The notes under the pieces: generated by a model | What the model saw: the letters and a program-made list of their open reading frames with translations, nothing else | The model's database searches: none | What the model was told of the DNA's origin: nothing | Assembly: GCF_003231495.1 (NCBI RefSeq) | Contig: NZ_PQWO01000003.1 | Location: 360,001 to 392,000, forward strand | DNA length: 32,000 bases | Origin: Acaryochloris thomasi RCC1774 | GTDB lineage: Bacteria > Cyanobacteriota > Cyanobacteriia > Thermosynechococcales > Thermosynechococcaceae | Reading direction: 5' to 3' | In this document: positions 10,284-22,207 of the stretch, piece after piece | Layout of the letters: every line of letters starts with the position of its first letter | Position numbering within the stretch: the first letter of the stretch is position 1 | Position numbers and translations under genes: made by a program

Positions 10284-10422
10284 CTATTCTTCCAGCGATA
10301 GGTATTGAGGTCGCTGCTCATCAACAGAAAAGATTTGACCATACTCTAAATATTCGGCCAGAATCACCAACAACGCGACGATTTGCGGGGGCAAGCCAAA
10401 AGCCAGTATCAACAATAGTCAT
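10284..10422 (-). pseudogene. decayed PIN-domain (VapC-like) toxin remnant
   Basis: Hand translation from the ATG at 10422 gives MTIVDTGFWLAPANRR..., a PIN-type N-terminus with the first acidic residue in the DTGFW context. It stops after 33 codons at 10321. The +1 frame continues ...ILAEYLEYGQIFSVDEQRPQYLSLEE* (stop at 10284-10286), which resembles a PIN C-terminus. Total length is far short of a ~130-aa PIN domain. Confidence 0.35.
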
Positions 10423-10601
10423 TACCGCTTGCCGTACTTATCTTTTAGGGACTCTGCCAACTGAGCTTTATAACGGATAGACAAATCGCTCTCAGCTTCG
10501 CCACATCCAATGAAACCACTATTTATACATGCATTAACAGGATCAGCCTGAGTCATAGATTGATAATAAGCATCTAGTATTGATTTGATGATTTCCGTCA
10601 T
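10422..10601 (-). CDS. 59-aa ORF, possible antitoxin of the decayed PIN module
   Basis: Hand translation gives MTEIIKSILDAYYQSMTQADPVNACINSGFIGCGEAESDLSIRYKAQLAESLKDKYGKR*. It is one codon below the 60-aa track cutoff. Its stop overlaps the PIN-remnant ATG (TAATG), the usual toxin-antitoxin coupling. Confidence 0.3.
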   Translation of the reverse strand: MTEIIKSILDAYYQSMTQADPVNACINSGFIGCGEAESDLSIRYKAQLAESLKDKYGKR

Positions 10602-10704
10602 GCTAGTAAATTCATGTGAGATAAGTTTTCAACATGTCGATTTGAGACGTGGCCTTCAATCTAGTTAGAGGTTAGATTGGACAACCGACCCTGGCTTGGC
10701 CTCC

Positions 10705-11646
10705 ATGTCTCAAACACAGTCTCCTGTCAATCTAATTCTACCCGTGGGCACACAGGTCGTTAGCCGCATTGAAGTCAAAAATGCCGCAGGGGAAGCGCTG
10801 TGCCCACAGGGTGCGGTAGGGGTGATTGTGCGATCGCCTACAGATAATTCTCATACCTATCAAATCAAACTGCCAAACGATACACTCATCAGCCTGAAAC
10901 GACTGAATTTCAGTATTCGAAAGCATTTTCAGCGGGAAGGTTTGGAACCGCCTCAGTCGGCATTGGAAGAGCTGAATCTTTTTGATCACGTTATCTATCG
11001 CTGCGTGATTGGCTCCAGAGCCTACGGCCTTGATGATTCTGAGTCTGATACAGATCGGCGCGGCATCTATTTACCTCCGGCCCAGATGCACTGGTCACTC
11101 TATGGCATCCCAGAACAAATTGAGCACAAAGAAGAACAGGAGTGTTATTGGGAACTACAGAAATTTCTGGTACTGGCACTGAAGGCCAATCCCAACATAT
11201 TGGAGTGTTTGTACTCCCCCCTTGTGGAAACCGCAACGCCGTTAGCCCAAGAGCTGCTCAGTATTCGAGAGATTTTCCTTTCTCGGCTGGTGTACCAGAC
11301 CTACAATAGCTATGTGCTTTCACAGTTCAAGAAAATGGAGCAAGATCTCCGCACAAAGGGAATCATTCGGTGGAAGCATGCGATGCACCTGATTCGACTT
11401 TTGCTCTCCGGCATTACGGTCTTGAGGGATGGGTTTGTGCCCGTTCGAGTGGAAGCCTATCGAGATCGCCTCATGGCGATTAAATACGAGCAACTATCCT
11501 GGGATGAGATCAATCAGTGGCGCTTGAGCCTGCATACAGAATTTGATCACACCTTTGCTCAGACCCATCTACCCGAGCGTCCTGACTATGAAAAGGCCAA
11601 TGCCTTCTTGGTTCAGGCACGGCAAAGTCGAGTCGGCGAGCAATAG
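10705..11646 (+). CDS. Pol-beta-fold nucleotidyltransferase, YcgL/RlaP-like (PF10127-like), with an extra ~95-aa N-terminal domain
   Basis: NTase signature VIGSRAYGLDDSESDTDRRGIYLPP (G-S...D-x-D). The helical C-terminal half is homologous to the next ORF. ATG at 10705 lies inside the TTG-initiated track ORF. Confidence 0.8.
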   Translation: MSQTQSPVNLILPVGTQVVSRIEVKNAAGEALCPQGAVGVIVRSPTDNSHTYQIKLPNDTLISLKRLNFSIRKHFQREGLEPPQSALEELNLFDHVIYRCVIGSRAYGLDDSESDTDRRGIYLPPAQMHWSLYGIPEQIEHKEEQECYWELQKFLVLALKANPNILECLYSPLVETATPLAQELLSIREIFLSRLVYQTYNSYVLSQFKKMEQDLRTKGIIRWKHAMHLIRLLLSGITVLRDGFVPVRVEAYRDRLMAIKYEQLSWDEINQWRLSLHTEFDHTFAQTHLPERPDYEKANAFLVQARQSRVGEQ

Positions 11647-11649
11647 ACC

Positions 11650-12408
11650 ATGAATGCAGTAGATCCCCGACTGGTTAATGTTGTTGCTCAACAACCCTAC
11701 CCACTCCTGTTTGTAACGGTGAGTGGTGCACATCTCTATGGATTTCCTTCGGCTGATTCTGACTACGATCTTAGAGGAATCCACCAACTTCCCTTGACTG
11801 AGCTAGTCGGTTTAAGAAGGGGAAAAGAAACGATAGAAGTTTCCAATATTCAGCAAGGGCTAGAGATTGATTTAGTGACGCATGAGGCTAAAAAGTTTTT
11901 CAGTCTGCTGTTAAAACGCAATGGCTATGTACTAGAGCAGCTCTATTCTCCACTCGTTGTTCACCAAACAGGGCCAGAATATAACGAACTAAAAGATATT
12001 GCCAAGCACTGCATCACGCGTAATCACAGCTATCACTACTTGGGTTTTGCAAAAACACAATGGCGACTCTTTGAAAAAAGCAGCCCAAAACGGGTCAAGA
12101 CTCTGCTGTATGTCTATCGAGTTTTACTAACCGGCATCAACCTGATGCACAGTGGCGTCATCGAAGCGAATCTTGTCACTTTAAATGAAAAATTTCAGCT
12201 TCCTTACGTACCCGATCTGATTAATGCCAAGATCACAGGGACAGAGAAGAACACGCTGGATGTCTCCGATGTTGAATTCCATGAGCGAGAGTACATGAGG
12301 CTGTATCAAACACTTGAAGCCGCAAGCCAGGCAAGTCATTTGCCTGATGAACCCTCAGCAAAACCCGACCTGCATGATTTATTAATTAGGTTGCGATTAC
12401 AGGGCTAA
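11650..12408 (+). CDS. Pol-beta-fold nucleotidyltransferase, YcgL/RlaP-like (PF10127-like), paralog of the preceding gene
   Basis: NTase signature VSGAHLYGFPSADSDYDLRGIH. The ATG lies 3 nt after the upstream stop. The C-terminal helix VKTLLYVYRVLLTGINLMHSG parallels WKHAMHLIRLLLSGITVLRDG in the neighbour. Confidence 0.8.
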   Translation: MNAVDPRLVNVVAQQPYPLLFVTVSGAHLYGFPSADSDYDLRGIHQLPLTELVGLRRGKETIEVSNIQQGLEIDLVTHEAKKFFSLLLKRNGYVLEQLYSPLVVHQTGPEYNELKDIAKHCITRNHSYHYLGFAKTQWRLFEKSSPKRVKTLLYVYRVLLTGINLMHSGVIEANLVTLNEKFQLPYVPDLINAKITGTEKNTLDVSDVEFHEREYMRLYQTLEAASQASHLPDEPSAKPDLHDLLIRLRLQG

Positions 12409-12565: not shown

Positions 12566-13534
12566 TCAAGCACCCAATACAAGCATCTGTAATACCTGAG
12601 AGCCTTGAGCAACGAGGTTTTGAGTTAATGGCAAACTATCAAGTCCCATCCCTGCACAAAGCAACATCATGTATAAAATCGAGAATTTAAAGACAGATCG
12701 AGCCATTGTCTTATCTGCGGGACTCTGATTGAGCTGCCAGACCTTTTGTATGAACATGCCGCCTAGGACAAGTGCGATCGCACCATAAACTCCACCCGAA
12801 GCATGGAGCGGATACACCAATAGCAAAGACGTGGGCACCAGCAACACTGTATAAAACATCATCTGCTTAGCCGTGGAATCATCACCATCCACCACCGGCA
12901 TCATCGGCACGCCAACCTTGGCATAGTCCTCTTGAATCATCATCGCCAGAGGCCAGAAGTGAGGCGGTGTCCAGACAAACACGATCGCAAACATTGCCCA
13001 AGCCGCCAAGCTCAAATCCCCCGTGACCGCAGCCCAGCCCACCAGTGGCGGAATCGCACCAGCCGCACCGCCAATAACAATATTTTGCGTGGAAGAACGC
13101 TTCAGCCAAGCCGTATATACAAAGAAGTAGGCCGCAATCCCTGACATGGCGAGGCAGGCGCTTAGCAGATTGGCAACGGTGGCGAGAAGCGTGAAGGATA
13201 TTATTGCAAGTGCGATCGCAAACACCAAAGCCTGCCAAGGCTGAATCCGACCCGAAGGTAGCGGACGGTGGCGGGTGCGCTCCATTACATAATCAATATC
13301 GCGATCGTAGAGACAATTGATTGTATTCGCCGATCCTGCAGCCAAGGCTCCACCCGTCAAAGTTGCCAAAACTAAAACGCCATCCACTTGGCCCTTTGCC
13401 GCAACCCACATCGCCGCCGCCGTCGTAATCAAGAATAGAAGAATCAGACGGGGCTTCGTGAGCTGATAATAGTCCGCGATAGTTTGGGTGACACTCTCTT
13501 GCCAATTAGTTCCAGGCCAAGTCAGTCGTTGCAT
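12566..13534 (-). CDS. ctaB: protoheme IX farnesyltransferase (heme O synthase)
   Basis: UbiA-family polytopic protein with the motif [26 protein letters not shown] at 13534 (a GTG at 13546 is also possible). It sits next to ctaA and opposite ctaCDE. Confidence 0.93.
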
Positions 13535-21490: not shown

Positions 21491-22207
21491 TCAACCTAAA
21501 TTAGAATATCGATTATTTTCTGAAAGCATTGTACTGATTGACTGAAATCCTACGCTTACAAAATAGAGTGACCAGCTAACGATTCCTAAGAACTTACTTC
21601 CATTCTCCATTAGAGAGCGGAGACTACTTTCAGCAATGCTTTCTGGCAGAGGGATAAAGCGCATATCTAAAGAAACTGAAAGCGCAAAGAAGGCAAATGC
21701 CAATGTAATCAACAACAGATTCCTATTAATTACTTTTCTTCTAAATTTCCAAAAGAATAGGATCATAGAAAGCCCATAAGCTAAAAGCAATAACTTTTGT
21801 GGAATTAAAAGATAGTCTGGGAAAATCTTTTCATGAATCAAGAACAAGTCATCAAATAAAAAGACAGCACTTATGAGGCCCGAACCGAGGAAGAATGAGT
21901 ACGTTTCCCGTTCATAGGGTCGATATTTGATCAGTGCTGCACAGAAGAAACAGATTCCTGCAGAGATGCACCATCCTAAAATCCCGAGATTAGAGAGCGC
22001 TCCTAAGTAAAACTTCTGGCCAGTTATTGTTGCCGGATCGCCAACCAGATAGAAGACATTGACTTTTTTTTGCAGTCCTACTCCAGTCAGTATCAGAAAA
22101 CTGAGGGAATAGATAACTAACAGTGTCTTAAAAAAGCTTTTGTTTTTATTGAATAAGGCTAATCGAAGCTTCATATAGCATAATACATCGATGGCTAGCA
22201 TGGCCAT
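21491..22207 (-). CDS. AT-rich small polytopic membrane protein, function unknown
   Basis: 238-aa ORF with about 6 hydrophobic spans. The gene and both flanking spacers are visibly AT-rich compared with all neighbours. It has its own 217-nt upstream spacer. Confidence 0.55.
   Translation of the reverse strand: MAMLAIDVLCYMKLRLALFNKNKSFFKTLLVIYSLSFLILTGVGLQKKVNVFYLVGDPATITGQKFYLGALSNLGILGWCISAGICFFCAALIKYRPYERETYSFFLGSGLISAVFLFDDLFLIHEKIFPDYLLIPQKLLLLAYGLSMILFFWKFRRKVINRNLLLITLAFAFFALSVSLDMRFIPLPESIAESSLRSLMENGSKFLGIVSWSLYFVSVGFQSISTMLSENNRYSNLG

Follow-up and report, generated by a model that had tools for sequence, protein, structure and literature searches.

A tandem pair of RlaP-family paralogs

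This study concerns two adjacent genes, here called gene A and gene B, in a 32-kb stretch of DNA from Acaryochloris thomasi RCC1774; the whole stretch is referred to as the window, and both genes are numbered in its positions (Table 1). The two co-oriented open reading frames (ORFs), separated by 3 nt, and the peptides quoted from them were found as described in the original prediction, an earlier reading of this DNA from its letters alone that had also assigned both products to the RlaP family (PF10127). Searches with Pfam hidden Markov models bear out this assignment, with 147.7 bits (E = 6.4e-43) for A and 168.6 bits (E = 2.6e-49) for B against a gathering score of 23 bits, and with such e-values the membership is real and far beyond chance. 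Both proteins also match the PHROG nucleotidyltransferase (NTase) families 388 and 14344, and neither has a match in NCBIfam. A and B are paralogs that share 31% identity (E = 1e-13). Gene A has an alternative TTG start at 10696, and the NCBI protein corresponds to the form of 313 residues that begins with ATG.

Protein A is made up of an SH3/Tudor-like β-barrel at about residues 10–75, a linker, and an NTase and helical RlaP core at residues 95–304. A Pfam search with its N-terminal 95 residues gave no match; in alignments this region is conserved in the A orthologs and in full-length A-B fusion proteins (see below), and neither B nor the canonical RlaPs have it. The AlphaFold2 (AF2) model of A has a predicted local distance difference test score (pLDDT) of 89.3 and places strands at residues 17–71. 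The models show the N-terminal domain as a small β-barrel of five or six short strands, and in Foldseek searches it aligns with SH3 and Tudor domains at template modelling (TM) scores of 0.6–0.76 (including 6a9c, 1x6g, 4hcz and 6wau). The catalytic cores match Hailong HalB, ANT(4')/KNTase, AadA and AAD(9) at the level of the fold only, with TM scores of 0.3–0.5. No RlaP structure was found in the copy of the PDB that was searched, whether by sequence, by profile (A, B and the B alignment) or by Foldseek. The AF2 secondary structure, taken without superposition on an RlaP structure, is consistent with an N-terminal NTase domain followed by a C-terminal helical domain and a terminal helix.

The active-site motifs were compared in an alignment that set A and B beside the Deinococcus pair, the two halves of a fusion, two RlaPs from phages and one further bacterial RlaP (L035), and were counted in 120 close orthologs each of A and B and in 68 more distant full-length A-type representatives. 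In A, E140 and E150 are invariant, as are G103-S104 and D115-x-D117 (120/120 close orthologs), and the position of the third carboxylate is occupied by Gln145, which is Q in 116 of the 120 and E in the other 4; the directly following Glu146 is kept in 119. This carboxylate, which lies in an h-D-h element preceding the K-F helix, is Asp in all aligned sequences but the A type: the column holds Asp in the phage RlaPs, the L035 RlaP, the fusion P0392 and B, and Gln in both the A. thomasi and the Deinococcus A proteins. Among the 68 distant A-type proteins the same position is Q in 24, D in 22 and E in 12; many A-halves of fusions carry D or E there, and some A-type proteins read QS, QL or QT at this and the next position, with neither residue acidic. 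In B, the three residues D38, D40 and D74 are each present in 120/120 orthologs, and the nucleotide-binding motif reads S25-G26-A27-H28, with G26-A27 in 118/120 and S25 standing just before it.

Measured against the canonical features of the family, B has all three catalytic Asp, and A has the D-x-D with Gln145 as the third; where the family has the hG[GS] nucleotide-binding motif, A reads G103-S104 and B reads G26-A27. The earlier view that both proteins carry a G-S motif and keep their catalytic aspartates stands in part. The G-S holds for A, whereas in register with A and the canonical RlaPs it is a G-A in B; the D-x-D is intact in both, and the third Asp is retained in B (Asp74) but not in A. 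Judging from these motifs, A most likely retains metal and nucleoside triphosphate binding but is altered at a ligand of the catalytic metal.

Pairing, fusions and neighbourhoods of the orthologs

A and B each have thousands of relatives, with the best 120 matches being 65–82% identical. A scan with the B profile, covering one genome per species, yielded at least 587 loci, of which the best 80 were analysed. These show 61–76% identity and belong to Cyanobacteria (42), Planctomycetota (14), Acidobacteriota (10) and Chloroflexota (4), along with Myxococcota and unclassified metagenome-assembled genomes (MAGs). An ortholog of A lies directly upstream of B in 58 of the 80, with an identity of 48–82%, the N-terminal extension included. 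Conversely, in a survey of 80 metagenome loci seeded with A, B is present in 60 of the 67 that could be assessed on a contig of sufficient length. B occurs without A within 10 kb in 13 loci with full flanks. Orthologous A-B pairs with 55–82% identity are seen in Cyanobacteria, Acidobacteriota, Planctomycetota, Chloroflexota and Deinococcus; thus, the pair is a conserved unit across phyla and not a private oddity. This level of identity in at least five phyla, combined with unrelated neighbourhoods and a location on megaplasmids in Deinococcus, suggests horizontal spread under strong purifying selection. The phage genomes contain no A-B pair, only distant RlaPs (<30% identity), some of which adjoin RtcB. 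In the phiKZ-like Pseudomonas phage phiHQ (L088:2968-5766), a single canonical RlaP ('YcgL') is encoded two genes upstream of an RtcB-type ligase, an arrangement that is the classical RlaP context and contrasts with that of the A-B pair.

The two genes are commonly coupled. Overlaps occur in 18 of 55 orthologous pairs and measure 4 nt in 15 of these; a gap of 0–30 nt separates the genes in a further 6. Natural A-B fusions form at least 45 protein clusters of 480–628 residues, from Planctomycetes bacterium Pla163, Thermoanaerobaculia, Phycisphaerae, Dactylosporangium and others, and have a linker of roughly 40 residues in place of the A-B junction. The AF2 model of one such fusion, P0392, has a mean pLDDT of 92.1 and a predicted TM score of 0.81, with disorder confined to the linker at residues 309–323; we take this to mean that the two halves probably pack in a defined way. 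The pairing in both surveys, the 4-nt overlaps, the natural fusions and the fusion model together support the heteromeric unit that had been suggested from the A. thomasi sequence. In the window itself, A and B are in the same frame, so that read-through of the stop codon would yield a fusion resembling the natural ones; as only about 10 of the 55 orthologous pairs are in frame, this is probably incidental. In a Pseudanabaenaceae MAG (L035:3251-4336), B is followed, instead of being accompanied by A, by a different RlaP of 361 residues with a large helical insertion and the canonical third Asp.

For the gene neighbourhoods, all ORFs in 85 loci were clustered, and 150 distinct neighbour clusters were scanned with Pfam. 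The RlaP cluster alone is universal, and the next commonest neighbour occurs in 10 loci, all from closely related Microcoleus. The scan of the 150 clusters revealed no recurrent family save generic methyltransferases, and no RtcB. The recurrent theme of the ortholog neighbourhoods is RNA end repair, in the form of Hen1, Pnkp, Thg1-like proteins, an AAA_33 kinase and DUF6717. Pfam confirmed the Hen1 (PF12623, Hen1_L), the Pnkp (PF16542, PNKP_ligase, with kinase and phosphoesterase domains) and the Thg1-like neighbours (PF04446 and PF14413), as well as the small AAA_33 polynucleotide-kinase-like protein. Of the 80 genome loci, 16 have RNA-repair neighbours at a distance of no more than 10 kb, and in the A-seeded metagenome loci Hen1 is present in 16/80 and Pnkp in 10/80 despite the short contigs. 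Pnkp is adjacent in L030, L043, L056, L072, L075, L086 and L087, and the A-B pair is placed between hen1 and pnkp in Deinococcus (L086 and L087), Pyrinomonadaceae (L043) and Planctomycetota (L056). In the RefSeq annotation the order is Hen1-A-B-(hypothetical)-Pnkp on the Deinococcus ficus megaplasmid and Hen1-A-B-Pnkp on that of D. gobiensis. Further orders include Hen1-A-B-Pnkp (L043), Hen1-Pnkp-kinase-Thg1-A-B (L054), A-kinase-Thg1-B (L039) and A-Thg1-B (L031), and in one Pnkp/Hen1 operon B occurs without A (Hen1-DUF6717-B-Pnkp, L030). Thg1-like proteins are 3'-5' polymerases that repair the 5' ends of tRNAs; their genes and those of the AAA_33 kinase are inserted between A and B or adjoin them, which points to cassettes able to mend an RNA at its two ends.

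The Thg1-like and AAA_33 genes between or beside A and B are located at L031:3280-4023, L039:4535-5759, L054:7878-9078, L055:3-473 and L027:176-925. The DUF6717 protein (PF20475; 118 residues, L030:9637-9993) stands in for A in the B-only operon and is encoded between A and B in the metagenome loci L105, L106, L108 and L112; it may be a further component of these RNA-repair cassettes. A different setting is seen on the Blastocatellia-like contigs L002–L004 (e.g. L002:2365-12941), with a Ser/Thr kinase upstream of the pair and co-oriented genes downstream for a 442-residue protein, DUF5691, an AAA_5 ATPase, a 229-residue protein and DUF5682; in L003, type III CRISPR genes (Cas10 and Cas6) lie just upstream.

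Proposed RNA 3'-end nucleotidyl transfer and its alternatives

The RlaP family was reportedly named by Burroughs and Aravind in 2016. Earlier comparative work, as cited in passages of PMC7824862 and PMC6514570, predicted an RNA-repair role for it. The statement in the original prediction that no substrate had been demonstrated is now superseded: PfRlaP of P. fluorescens and PaRlaP of P. aeruginosa add one or two nucleoside monophosphates to RNA 3'-OH ends, with a preference for Mn2+, and use neither DNA nor protein as substrate (PMC12776372; Carruthers, Fatma & Huang, bioRxiv Dec 2025). The same work reports that the Pseudomonas RlaPs are encoded between rtcB and rtcA, that the crystal structure comprises an NTase domain, a helical domain and three conserved Asp, that RlaP can restore aminoacylation of a tRNA short of a nucleotide before ligation, that the Pnkp ligase requires a 3'-OH, which is the product of RlaP, and that PfRlaP adds up to two nucleotides by a counting mechanism that is unknown (PMC12776372).

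We consider it probable, at roughly 60%, that A and B constitute an asymmetric heteromeric RlaP RNA 3'-end nucleotidyltransferase that serves RNA repair and is tied to Pnkp/Hen1 and Thg1-type repair. The two proteins would assemble as subunits of a single RNA 3'-terminal nucleotidyltransferase in which B, judged by its homology to PfRlaP and PaRlaP, would attach one or two nucleoside monophosphates to the 3'-OH of an RNA that has been broken or trimmed, using Mn2+ and no template. The most plausible substrate would be a tRNA, and the added nucleotides would bring the RNA end back to a length at which it can function or be resealed by a 5'-phosphate/3'-OH ligase, for example Pnkp/Hen1. B is favoured as the canonical catalyst because of the asymmetry of the motifs and the existence of repair operons with B only. 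A, we infer, is an accessory subunit concerned with substrate recognition or regulation, or would at most hold a second site of a non-canonical kind. The A. thomasi pair might cooperate in trans with repair genes located at other sites of its genome, or might repair 3' ends without ligation.

Compared with the Pseudomonas RlaPs, the pair is alike in its Pfam family, in the NTase and helical build suggested by the predicted secondary structure and in the three Asp of B, and its orthologs are likewise found in RNA-repair operons. It differs in that the Pseudomonas RlaPs are single genes, whereas A and B are two diverged paralogs that appear to act as a unit and are fused in some lineages; in that A has Gln at the third Asp and the SH3/Tudor-like domain, and B the G-A motif; and in its partners, which are Pnkp/Hen1 or Thg1-like proteins and never RtcB in the sampled loci, with none of them in the window. 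The bacterial Pnkp/Hen1 RNA repair system (PMC4411300) is similar in that its hen1 and pnkp genes enclose the A-B pair in some orthologous loci, but these two genes are absent from the window and most A-B pairs are not beside them; the searched text of that paper mentions no NTase component. As part of such loci, A-B adds a component to the Pnkp/Hen1 and Thg1-like RNA end-repair cassettes. Tandem active and degenerate Pol-β NTase modules are also present in OAS2/OAS3 and in TUT4/TUT7, with their inactive N-terminal NTase domain. These resemble the proposed A-B complex in having two Pol-β NTase units that act together, one of which has lost a catalytic carboxylate and probably has a part in binding the substrate. 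However, they are eukaryotic single polypeptides of other NTase families, and the likeness is an analogy with homology only at the superfamily level; 9h1z and 8opt are weak Foldseek matches.

Tentatively, and with more doubt than confidence, a narrower version can be put forward. Here the pair would be an obligate asymmetric heterodimer in which A, non-catalytic or non-canonical and equipped with the SH3/Tudor-like domain and the Gln substitution, acts as a 'reader' that chooses the damaged RNA and sets the number or kind of nucleotides that B adds; in the approximately three-fourths of genomes in which the pair stands alone, as it does in the window, it would be a ligase-independent RNA 3'-end repair or tagging enzyme. 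If true, RlaP would have a heteromeric form composed of a pseudoenzyme and an enzyme, which we did not find described. The family, its chemistry and its link to RNA repair are already known; the conserved pairing, the fusions, the Gln substitution and the SH3/Tudor-like domain were not found described in the literature that was reached, which did not include the founding paper of 2016. Being widespread and strongly conserved, with one canonical and one altered site, an extra domain and fusions, the A-B pair offers a system in which to test how RlaP chemistry could acquire its specificity for substrates and its limit of one or two added nucleotides. For the annotation of A and B, a more precise name than 'nucleotidyltransferase domain-containing protein' is available.

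Several observations weigh against the proposed heteromeric RNA-repair enzyme. As had been noted from the sequence, the window contains no RtcB or other ligase, Pnkp, kinase/phosphatase, Hen1 or Thg1-like gene; the family owes the name RlaP to ligase-adjacent genes, and it is the orthologs of the pair that adjoin a ligase, namely Pnkp. No repair gene lies within 10 kb of about three-fourths of the orthologous pairs, which makes a ligase-independent or different role possible. The characterised RlaPs are single-gene enzymes of RtcB operons and only distant relatives of A and B. It can also be argued that the invariant G-S, D-x-D, Q145 and E146 of A speak against a dead scaffold, and A could be active through E146, while the G-A motif of B itself departs from the canonical form.

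The foremost alternative is that both subunits are active and divide the labour by using different nucleotides or performing different steps, with the heterodimer restoring a defined sequence of two nucleotides. The split CC-adding and A-adding tRNA nucleotidyltransferases of some bacteria provide a precedent, as two paralogous NTases that jointly rebuild a short RNA 3' end. They resemble A-B in this proposed activity, but are of the class II CCA family, are both fully active and are not known as an obligate complex. The invariant G-S, D-x-D, E140, E146 and E150 of A, the D or E found at the third position in about half of the distant A-type proteins and in many A-halves of fusions, and the limit of two nucleotides in PfRlaP with its unexplained counting would all accord with a division of labour. 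Nevertheless, Q145 is fixed in 116/120 close A orthologs, the QS, QL and QT forms have no acid at either position, the equivalent E87Q mutant of AadA serves to trap substrates for crystallography (PDB entries), and B occurs without A in the L030 repair operon. On balance, we regard two active subunits as unlikely.

The original prediction saw in the pair a self-sufficient module, possibly of defence. In its general form this alternative holds that the NTases nucleotidylate the RNA or protein of host or phage, or produce an oligonucleotide signal, as a stand-alone anti-phage or toxin module in the manner of MenT/AbiEii, the CBASS CD-NTases or Hailong HalB. The variable genomic position, the orthologs that cross phyla at high identity and the AT-richness of B relative to its surroundings would fit such a module, as would the proximity of some loci to type III CRISPR (L003), AbiEi/AbiEii (L087), Uma2 or AAA_21 genes and the presence of HalB among the best Foldseek fold matches. 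However, A, B and the two small upstream ORFs have no match in PADLOC-DB v2 (E <= 0.01), and there is no conserved effector, sensor or antitoxin, with no neighbour cluster exceeding 10 of the 85 loci. Defence-type families are rare rather than enriched among the 150 neighbour clusters (3 Uma2 and 3 AAA_21), and the sole recurrent functional context is RNA repair. Likewise, an identity of 55–82% between phyla does not match the way in which defence genes usually diversify, and the likeness to the HalB fold is generic (TM about 0.44). These results do not sustain the defence proposal, which we consider improbable, and the present evidence does not justify listing A-B among candidate defence systems. 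An AbiEii/MenT-type toxin-antitoxin pair in particular is not supported, as Pfam gives RlaP only, the upstream ORFs are without family, and no conserved small partner is seen in the 85 loci.

It is still less probable that A and B are independent, redundant RlaPs from a tandem duplication, with neither complex nor interdependence. Their paralogy at 31% identity and the 13 loci with B alone are what such a history would leave, but the duplication is ancient, each paralog having its own orthologs at 55–82% identity across phyla. The recurrent fusions and the common translational coupling also argue against it, as do the consistent complementary differences between the two (the SH3-like domain and Q145 in A, the G-A in B).

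Finally, the kanamycin nucleotidyltransferase ANT(4') works as a dimer with its active sites at the subunit interface. With its two-domain build it is among the best PDB fold matches (1kny, 6un8 and 6p01), being the top Foldseek match for the fusion model and second behind Hailong HalB for the A model; however, it is a homodimer that acts on aminoglycosides, and the TM score is only about 0.35–0.4 at 11–14% identity. That the pair is a nucleotidyltransferase of small molecules such as aminoglycosides or other antibiotics is very improbable, because for all the top PDB matches to ANT(4')/KNTase, AadA and AAD(9) the TM scores are low (0.3–0.5, at 10–16% identity), the family is RlaP by sequence and the tested RlaPs modify RNA, and the neighbourhoods are of RNA repair, not resistance.

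Local context in A. thomasi

The pair is flanked by ilvB and an ORF of 151 residues on one side and by ctaB on the other. Neither flank is shared: ctaB is near the pair in no other locus, and an ilvB homolog is near it in one, 4 kb off and on the opposite strand, which we take to be a coincidence. Because of this, the pair is not a core syntenic locus, in agreement with the earlier view that it is not a housekeeping one. As also noted earlier, the second gene is AT-richer, with a GC content of 0.441 (0.427 at third codon positions, GC3) for B against 0.505 for the window; A, at 0.494, is not AT-richer.

Table 1. Features of the A-B locus, in window positions
Feature	Position	Strand	Remarks
Gene A, RlaP-family paralog, 313 residues	10705-11646	+	ATG start; equals NCBI protein C1752_01438
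SH3/Tudor-like N-terminal domain of gene A (approximate borders)	10732-10929	+	From alignment, models and Foldseek
A-B junction	11644-11652	+	TAG stop, ACC, ATG of gene B; same frame
Gene B, RlaP-family paralog, 252 residues, presumed catalytic subunit	11650-12408	+	Equals C1752_01439
ORF, 151 residues	9776-10231	+	Starts 4 nt past the ilvB stop; no family match
ORF, 59 residues, GC 0.39	10422-10601	-	No family match

The two small upstream ORFs had been read as a dead toxin-antitoxin module, a reading that finds no backing, as they match no family in Pfam, NCBIfam, PADLOC or PHROGs. Similarly, the supposed recombination scar at ctaB is not borne out: no flanking repeats, tRNA genes or mobile-element genes marking the locus were found in the window, and when the surroundings of the pair were searched for repeats, promoters and terminators, nothing came up beyond HIP1 palindromes and matches at the level of chance. 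Of the proposed mobility of the module, the spread across phyla with varying neighbourhoods stands, but not the local borders of a mobile element. An inverted repeat around most of the pair (10815-10837 / 12774-12796) is 78% complementary and centred on GCGATCGC, the cyanobacterial HIP1 palindrome; considered as an element border, it was rejected and taken as a chance match. Scans of the window with Rfam and for tRNA genes found nothing. Elsewhere in the window, a 238-residue ORF of low GC content (21491-22207, minus strand; GC 0.378, GC3 0.393) without a Pfam match is situated between a GT2 glycosyltransferase gene and a polysaccharide-biosynthesis (flippase-like) gene, and may have been horizontally acquired.

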